The position numbers were made by a program, and so were the translations under genes. This document shows, piece after piece, positions 1 through 21,221 of a stretch of 64,000 bases of DNA. The DNA comes from Acidimicrobiales bacterium (GTDB lineage Bacteria; Actinomycetota; Acidimicrobiia; Acidimicrobiales; VFJN01): NCBI GenBank assembly GCA_035316325.1, contig DATHJB010000017.1:3434-67433 (forward strand), written 5' to 3'. Position 1 is the first letter of the stretch, and the number at the start of each line of letters is the position of its first letter. The notes under the pieces were generated by a model that saw only the letters and a list, made by a program, of their open reading frames with translations, had not been told where the DNA came from and ran no database searches.

Positions 1-4
1 AGGC

Positions 5-1567
5 GTGAACAGTGCGGCCGCGACCCCGAGTCTGGCGGAGCTGGTCTCGACGCTGTCGATCGCGTCGGACCTGGGCATGGGTCGTCCGGTCGAGCGGGTG
101 CTGCGCCAGACGGTGATCGCGATGCGCCTGGCCGAGACGGCGGGCGTGGGCCCTGAGGTCCGGGCCGCCACGTACTACGCGTCGCTGCTGACCTGGGTCG
201 GCTGCGCGGCCGATACGAGCGACCTCGCGGTCCTGTTCGGCGAGGAGGCCGACCTGTACGCCGACACCCACGACGGCGACCTCACGCCCATGGCCATGGG
301 CATGTTCGTCGCCCGGCACCTCGGCCGGGGCGGCCCAGGCCTGCGCCGGGTCGGCATGGTCGGCCGGTTCCTGGCCACGGCCGGGCGTTCGGTGCGGAAG
401 GTGATGGAGTCGCACTGCCAGGCGGCCGGCGACTTCGCCGAGCGGCTCGGACTGGGTGACGACGTGCGCACGCCGCTGCTCCAGGCCTTCGAGCGCTGGG
501 ACGGCAAGGGTGTGCCGGGCAAGGTCGGCAGCCAGCAGGTGGCACCAGCCATCCGGCTCGTCCACCTGGCCGACAACGTGGAGGCGTTCCACCACGTCGG
601 CGGGGTCGAGGTCGCGGTCGCCGTGGCTCGCGAGCGGCGGGGCACGCAGTTCGATCCGGAGCTGGTCGACTGCTTCTGCGACCACGCCGCGGGGATCCTC
701 GCCGACCTCGCCGACCTGTCGGCCTGGGACGAGGTCATCGCGCTCGACCCGTCGCTCGGCAGGCCCATGGGCGACGGCCTCTTCGACGAGGCGCTCGCGA
801 CCTTCGGCGACTTCGCCGATCTCAAGGACCCGCACCGCACGGGGCACAGCCGGGGGGTGGCGACGCTGGCCGGCGGCGCCGCCTCGTTCCTCGGTCTGCC
901 GCCGTCCGAGGTGGCCGTCGTCCGCCGGGCGGGGTGGGTCCACGATGTGGGCGTCATCGGCGTGTCGAGCACGGTGTGGACGGAGACGGGCCAGTGGACG
1001 ATGGGCCAGCGCGAACGGGCCCGCACGCACCCGTACCTGACCGAGCGGATGTTGGCGCGCACGCCCACGCTGCGGCGCATCGGCCAGTGTGCGGCTCTCC
1101 ACCACGAGCGCCTCGACGGGTCGGGCTACCCGAAGGGCGTCACCGCCGACGCGATCCCGATCAGCGCTCGGGTCCTGGCTGCCGCCGATGTCTACGAGGC
1201 CCTGCGCGGGCCCCGACCGCACCGGCCGGCGGTGACGGCGCCGGAGGCCGAGCGGGTCCTGCGCGATGAGGTCGTCGCCGGTCGTCTCGACGGCGACGCC
1301 GTCAACGCCGTGTTGTCCGCCGGCGGGCACCGGGTGCGTCGACGGGCGGGCCTGCCCGGCGGGCTGACGCCCCGCGAGGTCGACGTCGTCGTGCAGCTGG
1401 CACGAGGCCGGTCGAATCCCGAGATCGCCGCCGCGCTGGGTGTGGCCCGCCGCACGGTCACCTCCCACCTGGAGCACGTGTACACGAAGCTCGGCGTCTC
1501 CGGTCGCACCGAGGCCGCGCTGTTCGCGATGCGCCACGGCCTGGTGGACGAGCCCACCGACGACTGA
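5..1567 (+). CDS. HD-GYP domain / LuxR-type HTH transcriptional regulator
   Basis: C-terminal HD-GYP motifs (VHDVG, HHERLDGSGYPKG), a degenerate N-terminal HD-like repeat (LLTWVGC...FERWDGKGVP) and a LuxR HTH (LTPREVDVV...GRSNPEIA...V.SHLEHVYTKLGV). Start is at the window edge. Confidence 0.85.
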   Translation: MNSAAATPSLAELVSTLSIASDLGMGRPVERVLRQTVIAMRLAETAGVGPEVRAATYYASLLTWVGCAADTSDLAVLFGEEADLYADTHDGDLTPMAMGMFVARHLGRGGPGLRRVGMVGRFLATAGRSVRKVMESHCQAAGDFAERLGLGDDVRTPLLQAFERWDGKGVPGKVGSQQVAPAIRLVHLADNVEAFHHVGGVEVAVAVARERRGTQFDPELVDCFCDHAAGILADLADLSAWDEVIALDPSLGRPMGDGLFDEALATFGDFADLKDPHRTGHSRGVATLAGGAASFLGLPPSEVAVVRRAGWVHDVGVIGVSSTVWTETGQWTMGQRERARTHPYLTERMLARTPTLRRIGQCAALHHERLDGSGYPKGVTADAIPISARVLAAADVYEALRGPRPHRPAVTAPEAERVLRDEVVAGRLDGDAVNAVLSAGGHRVRRRAGLPGGLTPREVDVVVQLARGRSNPEIAAALGVARRTVTSHLEHVYTKLGVSGRTEAALFAMRHGLVDEPTDD

Positions 1568-1600
1568 CCGGGCTGCCCGGGCTGACCGGGCTGACCGCTG
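1565..1600 (+). repeat. Short tandem repeat, 9-bp unit TG(A/C)CCGGGC, about 3.7 copies
   Basis: tgaccgggc-tgcccgggc-tgaccgggc-tgaccgc-tga begins at the regulator stop codon. Confidence 0.7.
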
Positions 1601-1625
1601 AAGTTTGAGCAGGAACATAAGTCAC

Positions 1626-1649
1626 CTGACCGATGCGCCGATCGGGCAG
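1626..1649. promoter_or_regulatory. Putative operator (imperfect palindrome) upstream of the NTF2-P450-OsmC operon
   Basis: ctgaccgat-N6-atcgggcag, 8/9 dyad, 18 bp upstream of ATG 1668 and directly downstream of a LuxR-HTH regulator. Confidence 0.45.
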
Positions 1650-1667
1650 CGTCCGTAGAACGGACGC

Positions 1668-2099
1668 ATGACTCCAACGGCCACCCCGACCGATCCCACG
1701 ACCGTCCCGGCCGACGACGCGCTCAGCTTCGAGGTCGCCGGCCGCTTCGTCGACGGGCTCGCCGCCCGCGACTTCGACCTGCTCGCCGGCACCCTCGCCG
1801 ACGCGGTGCGCTTCCGCGCCCTCCTCCCGCGCCGTGTCCTCGACCTGGAGGGGGCCGACGCCGTGCGCTCGACGTTCGCCCGGTGGTTCGGCGGTGCCGA
1901 GCGGTGGGAGATGGTCGAGGCGGTCGTCGGTGAGGTCGGCGGTCGCGTCCACCTGCACTGGCGGGTCCGCCTGTCCGACCCCGACATCGGCGAGGGGCCG
2001 TTGCTGGTCGAACAGCAGGTGTACGCCGACGCGGGGGCCGACGGTCGGCTGCGCGACGTGGCGCTCCTCTGCACGGGCTACCGGCCGGAGCGTTCGTGA
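1668..2099 (+). CDS. SnoaL/NTF2-like domain protein
   Basis: 143 aa with the pattern F..GLAARDFD.LAGTLADAVRFRALLP. Overlaps the P450 start (GTGA). Confidence 0.6.
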   Translation: MTPTATPTDPTTVPADDALSFEVAGRFVDGLAARDFDLLAGTLADAVRFRALLPRRVLDLEGADAVRSTFARWFGGAERWEMVEAVVGEVGGRVHLHWRVRLSDPDIGEGPLLVEQQVYADAGADGRLRDVALLCTGYRPERS

Positions 2100-3349
2100 G
2101 CGCCGTCGAGTGGGGCGGGTGGGGCGACGCCGTCCGCGACGACCCCTTCCCGACCTTCGCCGAGGCCCGCTCGCGCTGCCCGGTGCAGCACGTCCGGCTG
2201 CCCTTCGGCCACGACGCCTGGGTCGTGCTCGGCCACGCGGCCGCCCGCCAGGCGCTCGGCGACGACCGGCTGTCCAAGGACATGGTGGCCGCCCTCGACC
2301 AGGACCCCGACGTCGTGGCCGAAGGGCTCCCGGGCCCCGACTTCGCCCACCACATGCTGGCCATGGACGCACCCGACCACGGCCGGCTCCGGGGCCTGGT
2401 CGCCTCGGCGTTTCGCCCGTCGCAGGTCGCGGCCCTGCGCCCCGCCGTCGAGCGCCTCGCCGACCAGTTGCTCGACGAGCTCGCCGAGCGGGGACCCGAC
2501 ACCGTCGTCGACCTCCGCGGCGGCTTCGCCCACCCCTTGCCGTTCGCCGTCGTCTGCGAGCTCCTCGGCGTGGACGGCGCCCACCGCCGGGTCCTCCACG
2601 ACGCCTTCGCCACGCTGCTCCGGCCCTGGCCGTGGCCCCCGCCCCCCGAGGCGGTGGCCGCCTCGGACCTCGTCACGGGGACGCTCCGCGCCCTGGTGGA
2701 CGGCGCCACGCCGGACCCGGACGGCGACGTCGTAGCCGTGCTCGTCGCGGCCGTGGCCCGGGGCGACGCCACCCGCGCCGAGGCGCTCTCGTCGCTGTTC
2801 CAGCTGGTGGTGGCCGGTCACGACACCACGAGCAGCCTCATCGGCAACGGCGTGGTGGCCCTGCTCGACCATCCCGACCAGCTAGCACTGGTGCGTGACG
2901 ACGCCGGGCTCGTGCCCGGGGCCGTCGAGGAGCTGATGCGCTTCACGGCGCCCGTGCCCCACGCCACCTTCCGGGTCACGACCGCGCCGGTCGAGCTCGA
3001 CGGCGTGACGGTCCCGAGCGGCCGTCAGGTGCTGGTGAGCCTCGGTGCCGCCAACCGCGACCCCGCCTTCGTCGACGAGCCCGACCGCCTCGACGTCACC
3101 CGTCCACCCCGCCGGCACCTCGCGTTCGGTCACGGCGCCCACCACTGCCTCGGCGCCCCACTCGCCCGCATGGAGGCTGACGTCGCCTTCCGCCGGCTGC
3201 TCGGCCGCTTCCCCGACCTCCGCCTCGCCGTCCCCAGGGACGAGTTGGCCTGGTCGCACGGCGACGGCCTTGTGCTGCGCGGCCTCGGCGCCCTTCCCGT
3301 GGTGCTCGGCCCCGAGCAGCCGGCCCCGACCCCGACCTCGATCGCCTGA
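2096..3349 (+). CDS. Cytochrome P450
   Basis: I-helix AGHDTT, ExxR (EELMR) and heme-binding FGHGAHHCLG. Confidence 0.95.
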   Translation: MSAVEWGGWGDAVRDDPFPTFAEARSRCPVQHVRLPFGHDAWVVLGHAAARQALGDDRLSKDMVAALDQDPDVVAEGLPGPDFAHHMLAMDAPDHGRLRGLVASAFRPSQVAALRPAVERLADQLLDELAERGPDTVVDLRGGFAHPLPFAVVCELLGVDGAHRRVLHDAFATLLRPWPWPPPPEAVAASDLVTGTLRALVDGATPDPDGDVVAVLVAAVARGDATRAEALSSLFQLVVAGHDTTSSLIGNGVVALLDHPDQLALVRDDAGLVPGAVEELMRFTAPVPHATFRVTTAPVELDGVTVPSGRQVLVSLGAANRDPAFVDEPDRLDVTRPPRRHLAFGHGAHHCLGAPLARMEADVAFRRLLGRFPDLRLAVPRDELAWSHGDGLVLRGLGALPVVLGPEQPAPTPTSIA

Positions 3350-3384
3350 GCGCACCGACAACCGTCCGACGGAGGACAACTGCG

Positions 3385-3735
3385 ATGACCACCACCACCC
3401 AGCCCGTCGACAACGGCGTGGACGTGGACGCCCTGCTCGGCGCCCGCGCTGCGCTCAACGATGCGCCCGCCGAGGCGGCGGAGTTGACTTGGAAGGCCAC
3501 CTGCACCTGGTAGCGCGGCACCCACAGCCGCTCCACCGTCGACGGCTTCACCGGCCTCGGCACCGAGCACCGCCACCGGTCGACCTACACCTTCGACGTC
3601 GACCACCCGGAGTGCTTCGCCTCGGAGGACCACGGCGCCAGGCCTGTCGAGTACGTGCTCGTCGGCCTCGCCGGCTGTCGCACCGCCGGTGTGGCATCGG
3701 TCGCCCGGCACCGCGGGATCCAGGTCCGGTGTCTG
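3385..3735 (+). pseudogene. OsmC-family protein pseudogene (in-frame TAG at 3511-3513, 3' truncated)
   Basis: GGAGG RBS, then ATG 3385: MTTTTQPVDNGVDVDALLGAR...W*RGTHSRSTV...DHPECFASEDHGARPVEYVLVGLAGC..AGVASVA..RGIQVR. OsmC-like similarity ends near 3730, just before the duplicated oplB fragment. Confidence 0.8.
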
Positions 3736-3777
3736 GCCATGAGCACCGGCTCACCGAGCGGTCGGTCGACCACCGAA

Positions 3778-4162
3778 CCGGCGATCTCGCGCCTTGGGTC
3801 AGGGCGTTGTTGGGCCCAGCCGCCACCGCCGGGGGTGAGCATCCGGACGACATCGCCAGCCTTCAGGTGCATGGTGCACTTGTCAGGGAGGCGTTCGGCT
3901 CGGGACTCGTCGCCGCCGGGGAGCAGCCAGTTCTCTCCTATCGCACCCGGCCCGCCGCCCCAAAGGCCCCACGGTTGGGAGACACGGTGCTCGGTGATCA
4001 GCGACAGCGTGCAGTCCTCCAAGACCTGGAGGTCGCGCTCGATGCCCTCGCCCCCCGGGGAGAAGCCGGCGCCGCCGCTGCCAAGGCGCAGGCGGTAGCG
4101 CAGGACCCGCATCGGGAACGCACGCTCCAAAGCCTCGATCGGCGTGTTCTGGGTGTTGGTCA
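3778..4162 (-). pseudogene. Duplicated 3' fragment of the hydantoinase B/oxoprolinase gene (direct repeat of 9049-9434)
   Basis: About 91% identical to 9049-9434 by manual alignment (about 32 substitutions, mostly synonymous, plus a 1-nt deletion near the stop). Encodes TNTQNTPIEALERAFP...LTPGGGGW with no 5' part of the gene. Confidence 0.9.
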
Positions 4163-4386
4163 CCGCACGCGACACGCCGACCCGACGTCAGTCCGGCTAC
4201 CTGAGTAAGCCCAACAGAAGGCGCAGATTCCACAGTCTTCTTGCAGACACGACAGCAGGCGCCTCGCCCAACCCTCTCGAGGTGAGGTGCACCCCTCCAT
4301 TTCTAGGCGCTGAACGAGGACTGGACGACCCCCTCTCCGTGGGACACTCGAGGTGAGGAGCCGGCACGCTGGCGTCCGGAGGCGCG

Positions 4387-5976
4387 ATGGCGGTCACTGG
4401 TCGAGACGGTCGCGAGACCTTCTACGAGGCGCAGGCGCGCCACCGCCGGTCGTCGTGGCGCTTCACCGCCCTGTCGGCGGGTGCGGTGCTGGTGCTGGGC
4501 CTGCCGTTGAGCGTGCTGGTGTCGCCGTTCGCGTCGGCGCTGGTGCTCGTCACCGCCGACGTGGTGAACCTGGTGGTGCCCACGCCCGACATCGGCGACG
4601 GCTACGGCGGGCTCGACAACGTCCCGGTCGCCGGGGGCCTGCTCGTGCCGGGCATGGTGGTCATGGGCCTCGCCTGGCTGGCCGTGCGCCGCATCTTCAT
4701 GCGCTCGGCCGCCGGCGCGGTGGTGCTGGCCTCGGGCGCCCGTCTCCCCGACCTCACCGACCCGGAGGAGCGCCGGCTCGTCAACCTCGTGGAGGAGATG
4801 GCCCTCGCCGCTGGCATCGTGCCGCCGCGGGTGATGGTGGTCGACAGCGACGCCGTGAACGCGGCCGTGGTGGGCCGGTCGGTCGACGACGTGACGATCA
4901 TCGTCCACAAGGCCCTGCTCGAGGAGTTGGGCCGCGACCCCACCAGCGCGGTCATCGCCGACCTCCTGGCCACCGTGGTCAACGGCGACCTGCACGCGGC
5001 GCTGGTGGTCGCCTCGGTCTTCCAGACCTTCGACCTCGTGGGCGCCGCGCTGGCGGCCCCGTTCAGCCGCAAGACCCGGCGGGTGCTGCGGCGCCTGGTC
5101 CGCCTGGCGATGCGCCCCGACGGGCCGCTGAGGGACGGCCGTGAGGAGCACTACATCGCCGAGGAGATGGCCGACCTGGCCATGCTCGGCGGTGAGGAGG
5201 GGCCGGGCGACCGCCGCTCGGGTTGCCTGACCTTCCCGTTCCTGGCCTCGTCGGTGGCCTACAGCCTGACCCACGGCCTGGTCGGCCTCTTCCTCGTCAC
5301 CCCGATCATGGGCGCGCTGTGGCGACGGCGGCGGCTGCTGGCCGACGCCACCGCCGTCGAGCTCACCCGCAACCCGGACGCCCTGGTGCGGGCCTTCAAG
5401 CACCTGGGCCGGCGGTCGACCCCGGTGCCCGCGGGCCCGTGGTCGCACCTGTTCGTGGTGGGCCCCGAGATCGAGCAGGGGCTGGCCAAGCGCCGCTTCG
5501 ACGAGCGCATGCACGCCCTGCGGGCCGAGGCGCGTCGGCCCGGCGAGTCGACCAGGGACCACGTGCGGCGCCGCCTGAGCGAGAGCACCGCCGTCCAGGC
5601 CGAGTACCAGAAGGCCCTCAACGAGGCGGCCGGCGACGCCGGCGGGCAGAGCCTGATGCGCAGCGGGCTCGACCGCTTCATCCCGCCCATGGACGTGCGG
5701 CTGCGGCGGCTGGAGGCGATGGGCGCCCAGCTGTTGGCCGGCCCGGCCGGCGCTCCGGTGCTGCGCCGCCCCCGGCCCACCACGCCCTGGGGCTGGGTGA
5801 AGCGCGTGGTCGGCGACGCCGTCGGCTGGGTGCTGGGCGCACTGCTGGTCGTGACGATCGCCGTGTGCGTGCTGCTGCTGATCGCCCTGCTGGCCGGGCT
5901 CATCTACGGGGCCCTGCTGCTCCAGGTGCTGGTCGTGGCCCTGCCGGTGTACATCGTGCACGCCGTGCTGCGCTGA
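4387..5976 (+). CDS. HtpX/M48-like membrane protein lacking zinc-binding residues
   Basis: M48 scaffold (LVNLVEEMALAAGI..PRV.V.DS..NA, LADATAVELTRNPDAL) with several TM segments. The HExxH position reads ADLLAT. Confidence 0.7.
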   Translation: MAVTGRDGRETFYEAQARHRRSSWRFTALSAGAVLVLGLPLSVLVSPFASALVLVTADVVNLVVPTPDIGDGYGGLDNVPVAGGLLVPGMVVMGLAWLAVRRIFMRSAAGAVVLASGARLPDLTDPEERRLVNLVEEMALAAGIVPPRVMVVDSDAVNAAVVGRSVDDVTIIVHKALLEELGRDPTSAVIADLLATVVNGDLHAALVVASVFQTFDLVGAALAAPFSRKTRRVLRRLVRLAMRPDGPLRDGREEHYIAEEMADLAMLGGEEGPGDRRSGCLTFPFLASSVAYSLTHGLVGLFLVTPIMGALWRRRRLLADATAVELTRNPDALVRAFKHLGRRSTPVPAGPWSHLFVVGPEIEQGLAKRRFDERMHALRAEARRPGESTRDHVRRRLSESTAVQAEYQKALNEAAGDAGGQSLMRSGLDRFIPPMDVRLRRLEAMGAQLLAGPAGAPVLRRPRPTTPWGWVKRVVGDAVGWVLGALLVVTIAVCVLLLIALLAGLIYGALLLQVLVVALPVYIVHAVLR

Positions 5977-6017
5977 CCCGGCTGGCCGCTCGCCAGTTAC
6001 GAGTTGATAGGGCCGCA

Positions 6018-6152
6018 TGTAGCACCTGTCAGCTGTCGTGAGTTCGCTGACAGGGGTGTGGCGGGTGATCGCTGACACCTGAGTTGGGGTCTGGGGTAGT
6101 CCTGGCTGCCATGGCCCGGAAGGTGGTTGCGATGGAAGCCAAGTTGTTGGCG
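6018..6152 (+). mobile_element. Probable truncated IS481-family left end with first transposase codons
   Basis: TGT terminus (6018), repeated CTGTCAGC/GCTGACA subterminal motifs, then ATG 6111 MARKVVAMEAKLLA. This resembles, from memory, N-termini of actinobacterial IS481 transposases. Lower-GC segment. Confidence 0.4.
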
Positions 6153-6501
6153 GATGGCTGGTCGAAGCTGGACTCGATGGGCGCCGGTCACCCGAACAGA
6201 CCGCCGGGTGGCTGCATAGCTCGTGGCACCCGCCCGCGCTCCCTTGACATCGAGGTCGCCTGGTTAGGAAGGCCGTCGGTGACGGCGGCCGCCCACACGC
6301 ACCCAGCAACCACACCGAGCCTCGACCCTCCACACTCCCGGCGCGGCCACTGACGAGCTACGCCTCGGAGCATGGGCCCACCGAGGCCCCCTGCGACGAC
6401 ATTCGGCGGCGAGGCCGCGAAGCGACGAGGAGTTCCCACCGCGGCTGGCGCAAGGCCGCAGCAGCAGTTGCCACCGCCGGCGACGTCTCGCGACATTGAG
6501 C

Positions 6502-6533
6502 TTGACCTTGACGCGAGGTCAACCCTGCAGGCT
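6502..6533 (+). promoter_or_regulatory. MerR-type promoter/operator for the ABC exporter operon
   Basis: TTGACC (-35) overlaps the dyad TTGACCT-N7-AGGTCAA (6502-6522). Extended 20-bp spacer to CAGGCT (-10). ATG 6540 follows, probably leaderless. A MerR gene is in the same operon. Confidence 0.75.
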
Positions 6534-6539
6534 GGTTTC

Positions 6540-7364
6540 ATGAGTAGGACACCAGCCATCAGGATCGCCGGGCTCATGAAGTCGTACGGCGACCTCGAGG
6601 TGCTTCGCGGCGTCGACCTCGACGTGGCGCCGGGCAGCATCTTCGCCCTTCTCGGCTCCAATGGGGCCGGCAAGACCACGGTCGTGAAGATCCTCTCCAC
6701 GCTCCTCAGGGCCGACGGCGGCACGGCCGTGGTGAACGGGTTCGACGTCGTCACACAGGCCGCGGACGTCCGCGAGTCGATCAGTCTCACCGGGCAGTTC
6801 GCCGCCGTTGACGAGATCCTCACCGGACGCGAGAACCTGGTGCTGATCGCCAAGCTGCGGCACCTCGACCAACCGGGCCGGATCGCCGACGACCTGCTCG
6901 CCCGCTTCTCGCTCACTGACGCTGGGGGACGTCGGGTGGCGACCTACTCGGGCGGTATGCGCCGCCGTCTCGACATCGCGATGAGCCTGATCGGGAGCCC
7001 GCCGGTGGTGTTCCTCGACGAGCCGACCACCGGACTCGACCCGCACGCTCGCCTGGAGGTGTGGCAATCCGTCCGCGAACTCGCCCAGGGCGGCACCACG
7101 GTTCTGCTCACCACGCAGTACCTCGATGAAGCTGAGCAGCTCGCCGAACGGATCGCGATCCTCCACGAGGGCCGGATCCTCGTGAACGGCACGCTCGCCG
7201 AGCTCAAGGCGCTGATGCCTCCGGCCCAGGTGGAGTACGTCGAGAAGCAGCCGAGCCTCGAAGACATCTTCCTCGCTCTCGTCGGTCGTCGCACCGGTGG
7301 GGAAGCCCCCCTGAGCGACACAGCGGCCCCCCGGTCGCCACGGACAAGTGAGGTCGGACGATGA
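6540..7364 (+). CDS. DrrA-like ABC exporter ATP-binding subunit
   Basis: GSNGAGKT, YSGGMRRRL, VVFLDEPTTGLD. Start moved to ATG 6540 to fit the promoter. Confidence 0.92.
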   Translation: MSRTPAIRIAGLMKSYGDLEVLRGVDLDVAPGSIFALLGSNGAGKTTVVKILSTLLRADGGTAVVNGFDVVTQAADVRESISLTGQFAAVDEILTGRENLVLIAKLRHLDQPGRIADDLLARFSLTDAGGRRVATYSGGMRRRLDIAMSLIGSPPVVFLDEPTTGLDPHARLEVWQSVRELAQGGTTVLLTTQYLDEAEQLAERIAILHEGRILVNGTLAELKALMPPAQVEYVEKQPSLEDIFLALVGRRTGGEAPLSDTAAPRSPRTSEVGR

Positions 7365-8122
7365 ACAACCACTTCCTCAGCGACACGAGCGCGCTGCTGG
7401 GCCGCTCCCTGCGCCACATCCTGCGCAGCCCGGACACGATCATCACCACCGCGATCACACCGATCGTCATGTTGTTGATGTTCGTCTACGTCTTCGGCGG
7501 AGCGATCGACACGGGCGGCAGCAAGTACGTCAACTACCTCCTGCCGGGCATCCTGCTGATCACGGTCGCGTCAGGCGTCGCCTACACGTCCTTGCGCCTC
7601 TTCACCGATGTCTCCGGCGGGATCTTCGAGCGGTTCCAGTCGATGCCGATCGCCCGCTCGGCAGTCCTGTGGGGGCACGTGCTGACTTCGCTGATCGCCA
7701 ACCTGATCTCGCTCGTGCTGGTCGTCCTCGTCGCCCTGGCGATCGGGTTCCGCTCGGGAGCCGGCGTCGTCGCGTGGCTCGGGGTGCTTGGCATCATCGT
7801 GCTGTTCACCCTGGCGCTGACCTGGCTGGCAGTCAGCGCCGGGCTCGCCGCGAAGTCACCCGACGGCGCAGGCGCGTTCGCCTATCCGCTGCTGTTCCTG
7901 CCGTTCGTCAGCTCGGCCTTCGTGCCCACCACCGGGATGCCCGGCCCCGTGGAGTGGTTCGCCGAGCACCAGCCCGTCACCTCGATCGTCAACACGCTCC
8001 GGAACCTGTACGCCGACCAGCCGCTCGGTAACGATCTGTGGACCGCACTCGCCTGGTGCGTCGGCCTCCTGGTCGTGGCCTACGCGCTCGCCGTGCGCAC
8101 GTACCACCGCAAGCTCGCCTGA
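7361..8122 (+). CDS. ABC-2 type exporter permease (DrrB-like)
   Basis: Six TM segments, GIFERFQSMPIARS motif, coupled to the ATPase. Confidence 0.9.
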   Translation: MNNHFLSDTSALLGRSLRHILRSPDTIITTAITPIVMLLMFVYVFGGAIDTGGSKYVNYLLPGILLITVASGVAYTSLRLFTDVSGGIFERFQSMPIARSAVLWGHVLTSLIANLISLVLVVLVALAIGFRSGAGVVAWLGVLGIIVLFTLALTWLAVSAGLAAKSPDGAGAFAYPLLFLPFVSSAFVPTTGMPGPVEWFAEHQPVTSIVNTLRNLYADQPLGNDLWTALAWCVGLLVVAYALAVRTYHRKLA

Positions 8123-8161
8123 ACCGCCCGGCACACTGACCTCGATGAACAGCGGTCCGAC

Positions 8162-8938
8162 ATGCTGACGATCAGCCAGCTCGCGGCGTACGCCGGGGTG
8201 ACTGTGCGGGCGGTGCGCCACTACCACGCCAAGGGGTTGCTGCCCGAGCCTGAGCGCGACCACTCGGGGTACCGGCGCTACGACGCGGCAGCCGTCGTCG
8301 AGCTGATCCGGATCAAGACGCTGGCCGAGGCCGGCGTGCCGCTGTCGCGGGTGCAGGAGCTGTTGACCGCCGACGAGGAGGACTTCGCCGCGGCGATCGA
8401 GGAGATCGATCGCCGCCTGCGCTCCGAGATCTGCGAGCGCCAGCGCCACCGTGAACGCGTCACCGAGCTCGCGGCCGGCGACCGGCTAGCGCTGCCGCCC
8501 GAGGCGGTCGACTACCTCGACCGGCTGCGCGAGCTCGACGTCCCGGAGCGGGCGATCGAGATGGAGCGCGACGCCTGGATCCTCGTGGCCGCGCAGATCC
8601 CCGACCAGATGCCGGCACTGATGGCGCTCAAGCGCAGCCAGATCGAAGACCCGGCCGTCACCGCGATGTACGTCGACCTCGTCGAGGCGGCCGACTGGGA
8701 CACCGATGATCCACGCCTGCCCGCGGTCGCCGACCGGCTCGTGGCGATGTTCGAGGAGGACGCCGAACACTGGAGCGAGGACCAGATCGCCGACTTCGCG
8801 CTCGACGACGAGTTGGTCGCCTTGCTCGACGAGGTGTTCGTCAACGCGGTGCCGTTCGCCCGGAGGTTGCTGCGCCTACTCGAGGAGCGCGGCTGGAGCG
8901 GGTGGACCCAGCTCCAACGCATCAGCCCCCCGTCGTAG
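8162..8938 (+). CDS. MerR-family transcriptional regulator
   Basis: LTISQLAAYAGVTVRAVRHYHAKGLLPEPERDHSGYRRY. Confidence 0.92.
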   Translation: MLTISQLAAYAGVTVRAVRHYHAKGLLPEPERDHSGYRRYDAAAVVELIRIKTLAEAGVPLSRVQELLTADEEDFAAAIEEIDRRLRSEICERQRHRERVTELAAGDRLALPPEAVDYLDRLRELDVPERAIEMERDAWILVAAQIPDQMPALMALKRSQIEDPAVTAMYVDLVEAADWDTDDPRLPAVADRLVAMFEEDAEHWSEDQIADFALDDELVALLDEVFVNAVPFARRLLRLLEERGWSGWTQLQRISPPS

Positions 8939-9048
8939 CCGGCAACGGTCAGACGGCCAGCGCCACGACGACGAACTGCTGACACCGGGATCACGGGCAC
9001 GAGGCGCACAGAACCGCGGCGCCGCTCGCCCTGACACGAAGCGCGTAG

Positions 9049-9434
9049 CCGGCGATCTCGTGCCTTGGTTCAGGCCGGTGTTGGGCCCCAGCCGCCGCCA
9101 CCCGGCGTAAGCATTCGGACCACGTCACCGGACTTGAGTTGGATGGTGCACTTGTCAGGGAGGCGTTCGGCTCGGGACTCGTCACCGCCAGGGAGCAGCC
9201 AGTTCTCGCCGACCGCACCGGGCCCACCGCCCCACAGGCCCCACGGTTGGGAGACACGGCGCTCGGTGATCAGCGACAGCGTGCAGTCCTCCAGGACCTG
9301 GAGGTCGCGCTCGATGCCCTCACCGCCCGGGGAGAAGCCGGCGCCGCCGCTGCCAAGGCGCAGGCGGTAGCGCAGGACCCGCATCGGGAACGCCCGCTCC
9401 AAAGCCTCGATCGGGGTGTTCTGGGTGTTGGTCA
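9049..9434 (-). repeat. Second copy of the ~385-bp direct repeat (current 3' end of the hydantoinase B gene plus ~20 bp downstream)
   Basis: Aligns to 3778-4162. Confidence 0.9.
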
Positions 9435-10611
9435 TCCCCACTTGAATGCCTGACTCGCCGGGGTGGGGTCGGGGGCCCGGGCGGCCGCCCTGGCCGCCGC
9501 CGACGGTCTCGTAGTACACCCAGCCCGACCCGCCGACCAGGACGTTGTTCATCGTGCCCTGGCCCGCCGCCGGCACCCGGGGTCGGCACGGCTCGGCCAG
9601 CGCCCCCAGGCACACGTCGGCCACCCGCTGGCTCACCTCGACGTTGCCGGCGCCGACAGCGGCCGGCGGGAGCGCCGCCACCAGCGTGCCGGCGGGTGCT
9701 ACCACGGTGACCGGCCGCATCACGCCCCCGTTGGCAGGCAGCGTCGGGTCGACCGCGGCCCGCAGTGCGTACGACACCGCCGACACCGTCACCGCCTCCA
9801 CGGCGTTGACGTTGCCCCGGGACTGCGGGTCGGTCCCCGTGAAGTCGAACGTCACCGTGTCGCCCACCACCGTGACCGCGACCGCGACCCGGGCCGGGTG
9901 CTGCTGGTCGTCGGCGGAGCCGGTCGAGTCGAGCACATCCTCGAAGCGCCAACTCCCGTCCGGGAGGCCGTCGAGCGCGGCCCGCATCCGCCGCTCGCCG
10001 TAGTCGACGATCTCGGCCAGCGGCGCCCCGGCCAGCTCGGCCAGGCGGGCGACGCCGACGGCGTTGGCGCCGACCTGGGCGTCGAGGTCGCCGACCCGCT
10101 CGGCAGGAGTGCGCGAGTTGGCCTCGAACAGCGCCCGGACGTACGGCCCGTAGACGAGCGGCGGGATGCGCAGGCCCTCCTGGTGCACGTCGGTGGCGTC
10201 GGCGGGGATCGACCCGGGGGCGGCGCCGCCGAGGTCGGCGTGGTGGGCCCGGTTGGCCACCCAGCCGACCAGCGTCCCGTCGGCGAAGCAGGGAGCGACG
10301 AGGGTGACGTCGTTCAGGTGCGTGCCGCCGGCGAACGGATCGTTGAGGATCACCTGGTCGCCGGGGCCGAGCGTGTCCCCGAACGCATCGATGGCGGCCC
10401 GGACGCTGGCGGGCATCGAGCCGAGGTGCACCGGGATGTGCTCCGCCTGGACCATCAACTCGCCGTCGGGGGTGAACAGCGCCGCCGAGCAGTCGGCCCG
10501 CTCCTTGATGTTCGGGCTGTGCGCGGCCCGGCGCAGCACGGCGCCCATCGTCTCGGCGATGCCCGTGAGCCGGGACAAGAGCACCTGGAGACTGGCGGGA
10601 TCAAGGCTCAT
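9070..10611 (-). CDS. Hydantoinase B / 5-oxoprolinase subunit B
   Basis: SPNIKERADCS, HIPVHLGSM, NDPFAGGTHLND, YYETVGGGQG, MTNTQNTPIE, TPGGGGWG. Confidence 0.92.
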   Translation of the reverse strand: MSLDPASLQVLLSRLTGIAETMGAVLRRAAHSPNIKERADCSAALFTPDGELMVQAEHIPVHLGSMPASVRAAIDAFGDTLGPGDQVILNDPFAGGTHLNDVTLVAPCFADGTLVGWVANRAHHADLGGAAPGSIPADATDVHQEGLRIPPLVYGPYVRALFEANSRTPAERVGDLDAQVGANAVGVARLAELAGAPLAEIVDYGERRMRAALDGLPDGSWRFEDVLDSTGSADDQQHPARVAVAVTVVGDTVTFDFTGTDPQSRGNVNAVEAVTVSAVSYALRAAVDPTLPANGGVMRPVTVVAPAGTLVAALPPAAVGAGNVEVSQRVADVCLGALAEPCRPRVPAAGQGTMNNVLVGGSGWVYYETVGGGQGGRPGPRPHPGESGIQVGMTNTQNTPIEALERAFPMRVLRYRLRLGSGGAGFSPGGEGIERDLQVLEDCTLSLITERRVSQPWGLWGGGPGAVGENWLLPGGDESRAERLPDKCTIQLKSGDVVRMLTPGGGGWGPTPA

Positions 10612-10814
10612 CGTGGGGTCCGCCTCCGGGTGTCGACGCCAGGCGCGGCTGCGCCGCCTTAACTGTCACACCCTCTGAATATCGTCGTGTCAGGTTCATC
10701 GGAAAGGACGTGACATGCACAAGCACTCCACCAACCACTGCGCTGCGAGATACCCCCGTGACGCGCTGTAGTGTGCGGATCGCACTCTGAACGGCATCCA
10801 GGACACGGAGCACC

Positions 10815-11216
10815 ATGAGCATGCTTCCCGGGGGCAGGGCTGATCCCCCGACCAGAGATGACCTGCGGCGTCTCGAAGCCCGACTCGACGCCCGCCTACA
10901 AGAGGTCAACGCCCGCATAGTCCTGCACGATGGTCGCTTCGCAGCGATGGGCGATCGCATCAACCAGACCGAACGACGTACCGACGCCCTCGCGGCCCGC
11001 ATCGACTCCCGAATGCGCAGCATCGACCGCCGTTTCGACGGCGTCGAGAACCGGCTCGACAGCACCGACGCACGGGTGCAGCAGACACAGGACCGGCTCC
11101 TCGACGAGATGCGCGGCAGTCGGCGGCAGAGCACCCGGACGACGTTGCTCGGCTTCGCCGGCAGCACCGCCGTCACCGCGTCGCTCTGCTTCGGCACGCT
11201 CGTGGTGCTCATCTGA
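10815..11216 (+). CDS. Hypothetical coiled-coil protein with C-terminal TM anchor
   Basis: GGAG RBS, heptad-rich sequence (RFDGVENRLDSTDARV) and hydrophobic C-terminus. Lies antisense between the oxoprolinase A and B genes. Confidence 0.6.
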   Translation: MSMLPGGRADPPTRDDLRRLEARLDARLQEVNARIVLHDGRFAAMGDRINQTERRTDALAARIDSRMRSIDRRFDGVENRLDSTDARVQQTQDRLLDEMRGSRRQSTRTTLLGFAGSTAVTASLCFGTLVVLI

Positions 11217-11226
11217 GGGCTGTCCG

Positions 11227-13053
11227 TCAGTCCTGGCGGCGCAGGACCCACGCGCCGGCGGCGCCGGCTCGAGCGACCCAACCCTCAGGCACCCAGACGG
11301 TGCAATCGGCCTCGGCGAGGACCGCGGGCCCATAGGTCGACCGGCGGGGCGGGCCGTCCGGCAAAGGCAACCTGTCGAGGTCCACCGACGCGGCGCGACG
11401 CACGGTCGCACGTAGAGCGACCACCTCGACGGACTGCTCCAACCGGGCGTAGCCGTTGCGACGGGCGTGCTCGGCGTGGAAGGCGTCGACGTCAGGGACG
11501 GTCAGTTCGTGACTCTGGCCGGCATAGCGGCAGTCGAGCGAGGTCTCGACCTCCGTGTGAGCGCCGTCGTGGCGGTGGCCACTCGGGTCGAGCCCGCCGG
11601 AGGCGAGCTCTCCGGCCTCCTCGGCAAGGGCGTGGAGGGCGTCGGTCAGGCCGGTGTGGTCCGACGGCGTCGGCCACGACCGCACGAGGTCACGCCGCCG
11701 GGGTGCCGTCAGCAGCCCGACGGCCGACAGCACGCCGGCCCGCGACGGCACCACGACGGCGCTCATGCCCAACGCGTCCGCCAGCTCGGCGGCGTGGAGT
11801 GGGCCGGCGCCACCGAAGGCGACCAAGGCCAGGCCCCGGGGGTCGACGCCCCGTTCCACCGACACGGCCCGCAGCGCACGCTCCATGTTGGCGTTGACGA
11901 CAGCCACGACACCTTCGGCGGACACACCCGCCGAGGACAGAGCTGCCTCGGCCGCAGCGCGGTCGAGGCGGAGCCCAACGAAGGCCGACTCGGCCGGGAT
12001 GCGGCCGGCGACCAGGTTGGCGTCGGTCACGGTCGGCTGCGTGCCGCCCTGCCCGTAGCAGGCCGGGCCGGGCCGGGCTCCGGCGCTCTCCGGCCCCACC
12101 ACCAAGGCACCACCGGCGTCGAGCCGGGCGATCGAACCGCCACCGGCGCCGATCGTGTGCACGTCGAGCGAAGGGAACCGCACCGTGAACCCACCCACAT
12201 CGCGTTGGGCCGCCGGCGCCGGCTCGCCGTCGAGGATCAGGCAGACGTCGGTGGAGGTCCCACCCATGTCGAACGTGACCGCATCGGGGAAGGCGTTGGC
12301 CGCGGCCGCCGCGGCGCCCGCCCGCACACCCCCGGCCGGCCCCGACAGCAGCAGGGCCGCCGGCAGCTCCGCCGCGTCGGCCGTCGGGAGGAGCCCACCC
12401 GCGGAGGTCATCACCAGCACCTCGTCGGCCAGGTCGGTCAGGCGGCGGAGGTAGCCCCGGGTGCGCGGACGCAGCGAGGCGTTGATCACCGTGGTCACCG
12501 TCCGCTCGTACTCCCGCATCTCGGGCGACACCTCGTGCGAGCACACCACGTCGAGACCCCGCGCCCGCAGGTGGGCCGCCACCGCCCGCTCGTGGTCGGG
12601 GTTCAGGTCGGCGTGCAACAGGCAGACGGCCACGGTGTCGACGCCGTCGCCCAGCTCGAGTCGGGACAGCGAGCCCAGGTCCAGCGGCTCGATCTCGCGA
12701 CCGTCGGCGGCCAGGCGCCCGCGCACCTCGTAGCGGAGGTTCCGGGGCACCAGCGGCTCCGGTCGGTCCGCGAGCTGGTCGTAGAGCGACGGCCGGTCCT
12801 GCCGCCCGATCTCCACCACGTCGGCCAGGCCGTCGTTCGTCACCAGCGCCACCGCTGCGCCCCGCCGCTCGAGCAGAGCGTTCGTCGCCACCGTCGTGCC
12901 GTGGGCCAGGAGGCTCGGCCGCACCTGCAAGGCGTCCAACCCTGCCCCCACGGCCCGAGCCGGGTCGTCGGGGGTGGACAGCACCTTCGTCGACCGACCG
13001 TCCGCCGCCACGACGTCGGTGAACGTCCCACCTGTATCGACCCCGACCTGCAC
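11227..13053 (-). CDS. Hydantoinase A / 5-oxoprolinase subunit A
   Basis: GVDTGGTFTD, HGTTVATNALL, LSGPAGG, DMGGTSTD, GAGGGS, AFGGAGPLH. Start set at GTG 13053. Confidence 0.92.
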   Translation of the reverse strand: MQVGVDTGGTFTDVVAADGRSTKVLSTPDDPARAVGAGLDALQVRPSLLAHGTTVATNALLERRGAAVALVTNDGLADVVEIGRQDRPSLYDQLADRPEPLVPRNLRYEVRGRLAADGREIEPLDLGSLSRLELGDGVDTVAVCLLHADLNPDHERAVAAHLRARGLDVVCSHEVSPEMREYERTVTTVINASLRPRTRGYLRRLTDLADEVLVMTSAGGLLPTADAAELPAALLLSGPAGGVRAGAAAAAANAFPDAVTFDMGGTSTDVCLILDGEPAPAAQRDVGGFTVRFPSLDVHTIGAGGGSIARLDAGGALVVGPESAGARPGPACYGQGGTQPTVTDANLVAGRIPAESAFVGLRLDRAAAEAALSSAGVSAEGVVAVVNANMERALRAVSVERGVDPRGLALVAFGGAGPLHAAELADALGMSAVVVPSRAGVLSAVGLLTAPRRRDLVRSWPTPSDHTGLTDALHALAEEAGELASGGLDPSGHRHDGAHTEVETSLDCRYAGQSHELTVPDVDAFHAEHARRNGYARLEQSVEVVALRATVRRAASVDLDRLPLPDGPPRRSTYGPAVLAEADCTVWVPEGWVARAGAAGAWVLRRQD

Positions 13054-13130
13054 CCGCCGGACGCTACCCGCGCCCCCAACCCCGGATACCCCGCCGAGCC
13101 GACAAGGGCTGCCGGCCCCGGATCCCGAGG

Positions 13131-13580
13131 TTAGGGGGTGCCCGTCTGGGTGCGGGCGGCGGCGACGGCCAGTTCGTCGACGAGGTCGTTCATCGGGTTG
13201 CCGGAGTGGCCCTTGACCCAGCGGAACGTCACGTCGCCGCGGGAGCGGTAGAGCTCCACCAACGGCTCCCACAGGTCGCGGTTGGCGACCGGCTTGCGGG
13301 CGGAGTTCAACCAGCCGCGCCGGATCCACCCCTCCCACCAGCGGTCGCGGAAGCAGTTGACGACGTACGTCGAGTCGCTCACCACCTCCAGCCGGCCCGG
13401 CAGCGTCCGCAGGGCCATGAGCACCGCGGTCACCTCCATCCGCTGGTTGGTGGTGCGGGCCTCGGCGCCGCTGGCCGACGGTCCATCCACGGCCGCCCAC
13501 GCCCACCCGCCGGGGCCGGGGTTCCCCAGGCACGCCCCGTCCGTGAACACGACGGTGGTCCCAGGCACGCTTGCAGGCAT
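13131..13580 (-). CDS. rnhA: Ribonuclease HI
   Basis: FTDGACLGNPGPGGW, TTNQRME, SDSTYV, NRDLW, WVKGHSGNPMNDLVD. Confidence 0.95.
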   Translation of the reverse strand: MPASVPGTTVVFTDGACLGNPGPGGWAWAAVDGPSASGAEARTTNQRMEVTAVLMALRTLPGRLEVVSDSTYVVNCFRDRWWEGWIRRGWLNSARKPVANRDLWEPLVELYRSRGDVTFRWVKGHSGNPMNDLVDELAVAAARTQTGTP

Positions 13581-13702
13581 CGCCGCAAGCTAATGCGTGC
13601 CCGCCACCGCACCGGGACCCCCGGCCTCCAGGGGAGCCCGAGGAGCGGGATCATGCCGGGCCACGTGACGGGGACCCCACTTACGGCGGGCACAATGGGG
13701 CG

Positions 13703-20450: not shown

Positions 20451-21221
20451 TCAGCGGCGGAGGAGGTGGCGTTGGCGGTCGAGCCAGCCCAGCAGCACGG
20501 CGACCGCCCGGGGGTCGTGGCGCAGGCGGTGGCCGGCGCCGGTGACGAACCGCAGCTCGCCGGAGCCGTGGGCGTCGACCAGCACCCGGGCGTCGAACGG
20601 CGGCACCACGTCGTCGTCGCTGCCGTGGGCCACGAGCAGCGGCCGGGGCGCGTACTCCTGCACGCAGGCGATGGCCCGGATCGCCCGGAACTCCTTCGAC
20701 CAGGAGTCGAGCGACTGCGGGAACGCGGCGTCGGTGATCAGGCCCACCTCGCGGCTGTGCTGCAGCAACCGCCGGGGCTGCGAGGCCCAGTCGTCGAAGT
20801 CGGCGGGCGCCCCCAGCGCGGCGACGCCCCGGATGCGGTCGTCGCGGGCGCCGGCGCAGATCGCCAGCCCGCCGCTCGTCCCGAACCCCGCCAGCCACAC
20901 GCCGAGCGGCCGCTCCTCCTTCTCCAGGTGGTCGACGGTGGCGGTGATGTCGTCGAGCCACCCGCCGATCGAGAACTGGCCCTCGGACCCGCTGCAACCC
21001 CGCAGCGCCACCGCGACGGCGATCCAGCCCATCTCGGCAGCGATGCGGTCGGCCAGCTCGGGCAGGCTGTTGGCCACCGTGGCGGCCGACTCGACCACCG
21101 TCGGGTAGCCGTGGATGAGCACCACGGCCGGCCAGACGCCGGACTGGCGCCCCTCGGGGCGGGCGATGTGCGCGACCAGGTTCAGCCCGTCGGACACCAC
21201 CCGGTCGTCCATCACGGCCAC
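20451..21221 (-). CDS. Alpha/beta hydrolase-fold protein
   Basis: VLIHG, LRGCSGSEG, WLAGFGTSGG elbow, HGSDDDVV, GAGHRL. Confidence 0.8.
   Translation of the reverse strand: MAVMDDRVVSDGLNLVAHIARPEGRQSGVWPAVVLIHGYPTVVESAATVANSLPELADRIAAEMGWIAVAVALRGCSGSEGQFSIGGWLDDITATVDHLEKEERPLGVWLAGFGTSGGLAICAGARDDRIRGVAALGAPADFDDWASQPRRLLQHSREVGLITDAAFPQSLDSWSKEFRAIRAIACVQEYAPRPLLVAHGSDDDVVPPFDARVLVDAHGSGELRFVTGAGHRLRHDPRAVAVLLGWLDRQRHLLRR

Follow-up and report, generated by a model that had tools for sequence, protein, structure and literature searches.

A probable scar of serial mobile-element integration at a fixed site within the 3′ end of hyuB in an Acidimicrobiales bacterium

In a 64,000-nt stretch of contig DATHJB010000017.1 from an Acidimicrobiales bacterium (hereafter the window), the hydantoinase B/oxoprolinase family gene hyuB is accompanied by a second, detached copy of its own 3′ end, which raises the question of how a gene end came to be duplicated around a block of unrelated genes. 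The window lies on contig C17 of a genome of 6.4 Mb (244 contigs, 96.8% complete) and has a GC content of about 73%. Genomes, contigs and loci are designated below by G, C and L numbers, respectively, G000 being the window's own genome; the genomes used were mostly metagenome-assembled. We consider it likely that this repeat is a scar left when mobile elements integrated at a fixed site within hyuB. Support for the general mechanism is good, whereas its last step is less certain for the island in the window.

The hyuB gene, with hyuA upstream of it, is intact, and its last 121 codons constitute one copy of the repeat. Attachment (att) site terms in the following list refer to the interpretation developed below.

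9070..10611, minus strand: intact hyuB, 513 amino acids (PF02538 positions 1-518 of 519, E 9e-177)
9049..9434, minus strand: copy B, read as the replacement 3′ end attached to the gene, attL-like; codons 393-513 and a further 21-24 nt beyond the stop
3778..4162, minus strand: copy A, read as a displaced orphan hyuB 3′ end, attR-like; codons 393-513 (PF02538 positions 400-517)
9435..9462, minus strand: stretch of A/T-ending codons ahead of the repeat (GAG TCA GGC ATT CAA GTG GGG ATG)

Searching the 6.4-Mb genome with blastn aligned 3778-4162 to 9049-9434 at 91.45% identity over 386 columns with one indel (E = 4e-155), and a separate repeat search paired 3812-4111 with 9084-9383 (300 nt, 91%) and 3778-3817 with 9049-9088 (90%). 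These values agree with a preliminary description of the locus, according to which a direct repeat of about 385 bp and 91% identity covers the C-terminal ~120 codons and ~20 bp past the stop and brackets 4.9 kb of cargo; the copies are in fact 4886 bp apart. The first nucleotide of the repeat is the T of the Met393 codon (ATG at 9435-9433). In copy A, GTG replaces this ATG, and a 1-nt deletion near 3818 frameshifts the last five codons.

The differences between the copies were described as mostly synonymous, and indeed 23 synonymous changes stand against 6 non-synonymous ones (dS = 0.31, dN = 0.024, dN/dS = 0.08), indicating that the copies diverged while both were under selection; a ratio of about 1, which the preliminary description associated with simple duplication, was not observed. 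Copy B has a GC content at third codon positions (GC3) of 0.85 and copy A one of 0.87, compared with 0.949 over hyuB codons 1-392. The shift towards A/T-ending codons, earlier placed from about 9460-9480, likewise begins ahead of the repeat, as TCA, ATT and CAA are already present at 9445-9459.

Copies of the hyuB end recur in related genomes. Orthologues of hyuB were found in 26 of the 41 related genomes searched, and extra C-terminal fragments lie 1-32 kb downstream of the gene in G001, G013, G021, G027, G033 and G035, separated from it by variable cargo. Prevalence was assessed in 201 evenly sampled genomes of the order, of which 73 carry the hyuB gene end; at least two copies of this end were present in 15 of these 73, in 13 cases clearly orthologous and often in tandem. 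The densest array seen holds four hyuB 3′ copies within 5 kb (G197:C43:148716-153739). Islands without a recombinase gene between hyuB and an orphan fragment, as in the window, also occur in three other genomes, where they encode a RibD_C protein and an extracytoplasmic function sigma factor (G001), ZnuABC, Fur and YibE/F proteins (G021), or are short and unannotated (G033). The same orphan fragments with variable cargo thus support the proposal, made from the window alone in the preliminary description, that the 3′ end of hyuB is a recurrent integration hotspot.

Alignment of 27 gene ends and fragments showed that nearly every fragment begins within about 3 nt of TGACCAACAC, which encodes Met393-Thr394 (A-TGA|CC-AACAC, the bar marking the crossover point deduced below). 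The exceptions are the G021 fragment, which is truncated at its 5′ end, and the G027 fragment, which reaches further upstream. In the window, both copies start at the T of A-TGACC (4162 and 9434), the point common to more than 26 fragments linked to a large serine recombinase (LSR) gene.

The linkage to an LSR was recognized in G013 and G035, in which matches to PF00239 directly adjoin the distal fragment and are divergent from it. Both recombinases combine Resolvase, Recombinase and Zn_ribbon_recom domains, the architecture of LSRs, and are 45% identical over their full length. When one genome per species was scanned with an alignment of both proteins, 33 loci were obtained, the majority in Acidimicrobiia and a few in Nocardioidaceae, Nostocoides, Solirubrobacterales and other metagenome-assembled genomes. 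At 26 or more of these 33 loci, a hyuB fragment on the opposite strand (amino acids 393 to ~505) ends upstream of the LSR start, at a distance of 20-170 nt; the remaining loci are mostly interrupted by contig ends. Several LSR loci contain two to four tandem fragments. At loci L049 and L050, on one contig (JAFIEP010000138, 8794-29828 and 38543-59577 reversed), a truncated LSR region is present twice, in identical form and inverted orientation, with a hyuB fragment ~3.7 kb from each copy; the cause is a large inverted duplication or else an artefact of assembly.

Comparison of the junctions allowed attB and attP to be assigned. On the LSR side (attR), read in the orientation of hyuB, CAT-AGGTAGTCAAAGAGTAATGAGT-TGA|CCAACAC... 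is followed by the host gene end, CAT being the start codon of the LSR gene on the other strand; the P arm, GGTCAACTCATTACTCTTTGACTACCTATG, is conserved among hyuB-linked LSR loci. On the gene side (attL), host sequence ...GGCGTCCACACCGGCATGA|CCAACAC (...ATGA|CCAACAC) is followed by AGATCAAGTTGACTACC, and about 45 nt further a second ATGAC.AA.AC opens the element-borne hyuB copy (codons ~380-513). Judging from these junctions, canonical integration appears to leave an in-frame insertion of ~24 codons with MTNT duplicated, which explains why hyuB of G013 and G035 matches as two overlapping pieces.

Joining of the P and P′ arms yields an attP of the form GGTAGTCAA-N30-TTGACTACC, a perfect 9-bp inverted repeat about the centre TGA|CC, the half-sites being located at -24..-16 in attR (P, GGTAGTCAA) and at +16..+24 in attL (P′, TTGACTACC). 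The reconstructed 48-bp attP reads GGTAGTCAAAGAGTAATGAGTTGA|CCAACACAGATCAAGTTGACTACC. The host attB is also a dyad, with GGCGTGC at -19..-13 and ACACGCC at +13..+19, and reads GGCGTGCACACCGGCATGA|CCAACACGAAGAACACGCC in naive relatives and GGCATTCAAGTGGGGATGA|CCAACACCCAGAACACCCC in the window. In LSR sites, attP usually has its outer motifs ~5 bp more distant from the centre than attB. From the alignments of gene ends and the attL/attR junctions, the site in the window is placed as follows.

9413..9451, minus strand: attB-type 38-bp dyad, centre TGA|CC between 9432 and 9431

Two stacked P′ insertions are present in hyuB at L041, and displaced older pieces still bear the P′ arm in G027, L037 and L045; together these provide direct evidence of serial integration. 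The L041 sequence (20600-20800; QEUP01000022) has three successive ATGA|C.AACAC sites with a spacing of 72-87 nt, a record of two successive integrations in frame.

Intact elements, represented by G013, G035, L045 and L059, measure 6-32 kb and carry the LSR, a MobF/TrwC relaxase and cargo. For three of them the gene content is as follows.

L045: LSR, TIR-domain protein, MobF/TrwC relaxase, three small open reading frames (ORFs)
L059: LSR, DUF4011 helicase with MTES_1575 nuclease, relaxase, AAA ATPase
G035: LSR, relaxase, two DNA methylases, Fe-S proteins, two insertion sequence (IS) transposases

Having a relaxase while lacking mating-pore genes, at least in the smaller elements, they fit the definition of integrative mobilizable elements (IMEs).

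Which of the two hyuB ends is imported can be read from codon usage. At loci with differing composition, the gene-attached end looks like the element and the LSR-side fragment like the host, as the GC3 values of three loci illustrate.

L059: 0.943 in the 5′ part of the gene, 0.762 in the gene-attached 3′ end, 0.958 in the LSR-side fragment
G035: about 0.95 in the 5′ part of the gene, 0.79 in the gene-attached 3′ end, 0.90 in the LSR-side fragment
G013: 0.84 in the 5′ part of the gene, 0.76 in the gene-attached 3′ end, 0.82 in the LSR-side fragment

In the window, GC3 of hyuB falls by 0.106 at the breakpoint (0.949 to 0.843). Island-free relatives (G023, G004, G008, G006 and G040) have no such drop at codon 393, GC3 remaining host-like across it; the A/T-rich end shared with cargo-free relatives that the preliminary description would have expected after simple duplication was therefore not encountered. 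Drops of 0.11-0.21 at the breakpoint codon were also observed in hyuB of G010 (L009), G005 (L012/L068) and G007 (L017/L069). Among genomes with a drop, G005, G007 and G034 have neither a fragment nor an LSR within 6-16 kb (G005 and G007 being covered for 6-10 kb downstream), and the G010 contig stops ~390 nt past hyuB. In G005, G007 and G010, replacement of the end may have been followed by deletion of the island.

These observations can be accommodated in a single scheme. Acidimicrobiales and some other Actinomycetota harbour a family of integrative mobilizable elements with an LSR and a MobF/TrwC relaxase, whose 48-bp attP would recombine with the 38-bp dyad of hyuB at Met393-Thr394, with TGA|CC at its centre. 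As the element would bear its own last ~135 hyuB codons just past attP, integration would leave hyuB full-length with an element-derived 3′ end, while the former 3′ end of the host would be moved to the far side of the element, next to the LSR gene. Repeated integration and decay would then produce tandem orphan fragments. In the window, copy B would be the imported end and copy A the previously resident one.

Accordingly to this scheme we read the window island (4163-9434, 5.3 kb) as a decayed member of a tandem array, resembling a cis-mobilizable element (CIME) or a pseudo staphylococcal cassette chromosome (pseudo-SCC). It shares its target with functional elements and is bordered by repeats of the target end, and both recombination and transfer genes are absent. 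It probably descends from an element of this family or from a genus-specific variant with a different flank, not from homologous recombination alone, and has presumably lost the ability to move by itself; from its sequence, mobilization in cis also appears doubtful.

That the island is part of an array is indicated by a third relic of hyuB beyond the left end of the window. It comprises 66 nt at C17:3289-3354 (window -144..-79), is oriented like copies A and B, and corresponds to hyuB codons 444-465, AVSLITERRVSHPWGLWGGEPG, with 82% identity (tblastn and blastn). Its presence implies an older island spanning window positions 1-3777, and the tandem serial integration that the preliminary description proposed is thus borne out here and is common elsewhere. 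The same description expected the native 3′ end, together with an integrase, to the left of the window. A degenerate end does lie there, yet it is not recognizable as the native one: G or C occupies the third position in 15 of the 22 codons (~0.68, hand count). Neither the 3.4 kb to the left of the window nor the rest of contig C17 revealed an integrase, PF00239 giving zero matches on the whole contig, and the left side contains neither a third full copy nor a recombinase gene. The remaining 3.3 kb hold a glyoxalase-family ORF and one ORF without a Pfam match, a third short ORF lying outside the scan. The older island is delimited as follows.

1..3777, no strand: probable older island from copy A to the third relic, its status as an island being deduced
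5-1567, plus strand: HD-GYP/LuxR regulator (Pfam)
2096-3349, plus strand: cytochrome P450 (Pfam)

The third relic is situated just upstream of the HD-GYP/LuxR gene. At the DNA level, positions 1-3777 gave no match to regions downstream of hyuB in genomes of the same genus.

The window island differs from canonical elements at its borders, and most of all in the sequence that meets copy A, here called flank X. Two border features are involved.

4163..4330, minus strand: flank X, genus-specific, joined to copy A exactly at the crossover; homologous flanks in G000 and G001
9006..9069, minus strand: 64-nt post-stop tail of copy B, shared with an attP-like hyuB′ module on G001:C52 (blastn)

Flank X is clearly conserved over ~95 nt, and weakly up to ~170 nt, and has the attB-type outer motif GGCGTGT at -19..-13. 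Besides the window it occurs only on G000:C69, G001:C206, G001:C52 and G001:C92, making five places in two genomes of the genus, and it is absent from the rest of 80 genomes of the family. It always meets hyuB′ at TGA|CC, and the genes beyond ~95-170 nt are unrelated. The module on G001:C52 has flank X in common with copy A and the 64-nt tail in common with copy B (window 9006-9434 versus L022:3135-2700, 80.5% identity by blastn), and a donor for the window island, if attP-like, would be expected to look like this. An IS110-family transposase gene (L022:3211-4359) follows the tail of this module after 76 nt.

Immediately upstream of Met393, the stretch of A/T-ending codons resembles the 'extension' that precedes the hyuB′ copy in canonical elements (attL CCAGTC.GG.ATTCA.AC.GGCATGAC), and, if the two are related, suggests an earlier canonical insertion that was tidied by a small deletion.

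Attempts to relate flank X to known sequences were negative. Its local alignment with the canonical P′ arm plus extension was no better than with shuffled sequences (z < 1.5). Against the leaders of type II LSRs (L047/L058/L061/L062), one short motif aligned (GCACGCGACACGCC versus GGACGCGACACCC) and the rest did not, which we regard as unconvincing. Beyond the genus, a scan of metagenome contigs with a degenerate pattern returned 13 matches, none near hyuB or an LSR, which are therefore regarded as fortuitous.

Two further orphan pieces of hyuB were noted in the window's own genome. The one on C69 (G000:C69:50660-50920) has the same breakpoint and flank X, is truncated at amino acid 456, its hyuB part being 50660-50844, and sits between genes for an AAA ATPase and an amidohydrolase. 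The other (G000:C72:26694-26813) comprises amino acids 405-447 only.

Several observations weigh against site-specific integration as the immediate origin of the window island. While its sites have the central TGACCAACAC and the attB-type outer motifs, the P and P′ arms are absent, there being neither a canonical P arm before copy A nor a P′ insertion in copy B. Flank X resembles neither the P arm nor P′ plus extension, and its neighbours are different genes each time and never a recombinase. The island has no LSR or tyrosine integrase gene and its cargo (HtpX-like, DrrA/DrrB-like and MerR genes only) no relaxase; the G000 assembly lacks a close homologue of the hyuB-linked LSRs, the best tblastn matches being 27-29% identical and on other contigs. 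Close relatives yielded no empty site. Furthermore, the divergence between copies A and B is mosaic, with a dS of 0.18 over the first 291 nt and saturation over the last 54 nt, and the pair is 91% identical, compared with 72-78% for the pairs in G013 and G035. This mosaic divergence and high identity indicate that gene conversion or homologous recombination also acted at the window locus. Two routes would lead to the same product: site-specific entry of, or together with, a genus-specific variant followed by decay, or homologous insertion of a circle carrying flank X, hyuB′ and tail.

The second of these routes can be taken as an explanation in its own right. A circular DNA bearing 'flank X + hyuB codons 393-513 + tail' would then have inserted by a Campbell-type single crossover, mediated by RecA within the 385-bp homology, without the action of any site-specific recombinase in this lineage and with the sharp TGA|CC boundary inherited together with the module. 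This would account for the missing P arm and for a copy B without P′ arm, for a change in codon usage that starts ~30 nt upstream of the repeat, for the mosaic divergence, for the lack of a matching LSR in the assembly and for the presence of the module at non-hyuB sites in the genus. However, the 5′ junction of the module equals, to the nucleotide, the LSR crossover of more than 26 independent loci, so that site-specific recombination is still needed for the origin of the module, and the explanation departs from integration at a fixed site in its last step only. We hold it to be unlikely, although it is the strongest of the competitors. With still lower probability, the same module is a portable landing pad or exchangeable cassette within the genus. 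The pairing of flank X with hyuB′ (X-O-B′, GGCGTGT-N24-ACACGCC) is a better attB-type dyad than hyuB itself and, given at least five copies in two genomes without a recombinase, could capture hyuB-targeting elements as a decoy or secondary attB; or it might serve as a spare C-terminal module without a promoter, to be swapped into hyuB. If the latter were true, the elements would diversify the C-terminal domain of the enzyme rather than merely restore it.

The remaining explanations are very improbable. An e14-like prophage or island with a tyrosine integrase beyond the left end of the window, a version of the model in the preliminary description, matches the architecture of a replacement 3′ end with a displaced pseudo-end and would fit the third relic to the left, but PF00589 is absent from contig C17 and from all hyuB islands of eight genomes, the recombinase linked to the site is consistently of the serine type, and no phage genes were seen in the annotated islands. 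Hardly more credible is a segmental duplication of the gene end at this locus, with unrelated insertions and neutral decay afterwards: copy A is indeed frameshifted and without ATG, yet a dN/dS of 0.08 at a dS of 0.31, together with a conserved breakpoint that coincides with the LSR crossover, excludes a plain duplication, the cargo has a lower GC content, and the pattern recurs in many genera. Least probable of all is an assembly or binning artefact joining hyuB alleles of different strains. Such an error might be suspected in a metagenome-derived genome of 244 contigs with copies that are 91% identical, but the flanks of copy A are unique on both sides and the same architecture is found in independent assemblies, including large contigs.

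The cargo of the window island has a GC content of 0.65-0.70, against 0.73-0.76 in the surroundings, and comprises four genes.

4387..5976, plus strand: 529-amino-acid membrane protein with a partial HtpX/M48-like region (PF01435, E 1e-7)
6372..7364, plus strand: ABC ATPase, DrrA-like (PF00005; TIGR01188 drrA 279.8 bits versus a cut-off of 312)
7361..8122, plus strand: ABC-2 permease, DrrB-like (PF01061; TIGR00025/TIGR01247 below cut-off)
8162..8938, plus strand: MerR-family regulator (PF13411/PF00376; NCBIfam matches of MerR-type helix-turn-helix models only, all below cut-off)

Together, the DrrA- and DrrB-like proteins would constitute an ABC exporter of the DrrAB type, an efflux pump. HtpX models match the 529-amino-acid protein with E 2.5e-20, far below their cut-off. 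Its gene occupies the position of the recombinase gene in canonical elements. No remnant of an LSR gene was found in the window: tblastn gave no signal, the matches to residues 1-84 of 'lsr13' being the antisense frame of hyuB′. No tRNA gene is present in window positions 1-14000, nor does any Rfam match there rise above noise. In the intergenic stretch that separates the HtpX-like gene from the DrrA-like gene, positions 6024-6153 are 83% identical to G000:C88:54501-54628 and may be a small dispersed repeat.

How do these elements compare with known systems? SCCmec, pseudo-SCC and composite SCC are islands at the 3′ end of rlmH (orfX) that are moved by the large serine recombinases CcrAB/CcrC, and are the nearest LSR analogue: the recombinase targets the 3′ end of a conserved protein gene that is kept intact, tandem or composite islands are parted by repeated att sequences, and recombinase-less derivatives occur at the same site. 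They differ in that SCC restores few codons and leaves short direct repeats, whereas hyuB elements carry ~135 target codons, a MobF relaxase and have Acidimicrobiia as hosts. Moreover, the hyuB LSR is only distantly related to Ccr (NCBIfam CcrB/CcrC, E 1e-7 to 1e-8, far below cut-off). For the replacement end, the nearest analogue is e14, which, like phage 21, is a prophage with a tyrosine integrase in the metabolic gene icd. Both supply a diverged replacement 3′ end with mostly synonymous differences while the original end stays as a downstream pseudo-fragment; hyuB elements, in contrast, use a serine recombinase, are mobilizable rather than viral and, in canonical form, add an in-frame insertion of ~24 codons. 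Mycobacteriophage Bxb1, which integrates in groEL1, also combines an LSR of an actinobacterial mobile element with an attB in the 3′ part of a protein gene, but is a phage whose target is altered or truncated, no replacement end being brought.

Integration, decay into a CIME and accretion of a further element are known for ICEs (integrative and conjugative elements) as well as IMEs (PMC5704250). In particular, CIMEs and the tandem accretion of ICESt1/ICESt3-type elements are described at the 3′ end of fda (Pavlovic 2004; Bellanger 2011; reviewed in PMC5704250), which is exactly the pattern at hyuB; these elements differ by their tyrosine integrases, and the window island by having no recognizable canonical att arms. 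Tn4451 and the rumA-targeting IMEs of Firmicutes are likewise small, with one site-specific serine recombinase and a relaxase (PMC5704250). The serine-recombinase IMEs known in 2017 are bordered by direct repeats that are very short and disrupt dispensable target genes (PMC5704250), whereas hyuB elements preserve their target by a long replacement segment.

A literature search returned no paper that ties hydantoinase or oxoprolinase genes to an att site. The analysis points, from sequence alone, to a previously undescribed target and element family, in which an LSR and a MobF relaxase are associated with one 38-bp hyuB dyad and attB and attP can be reconstructed, and extends to LSR elements a replacement-end strategy of which e14 in icd, with its tyrosine integrase, is a known example. 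It would also explain why the variable region beside hyuB gathers efflux, metal-uptake, regulatory and defence genes in these poorly studied, mostly uncultured bacteria. Annotators may use orphan hyuB ends as a marker of island borders, and the natural set of LSR, attB and attP is a possible candidate recombination tool. For the window alone the conclusion is more modest, namely a decayed, probably immobile island within a tandem array.

On the other side of hyuB, the hyuA-hyuB spacer (window 10612-11226, ~600 nt) has a lower GC content (0.64-0.68). It is conserved in two genomes of the same genus, and G001 has a divergent ORF of 135 amino acids there.

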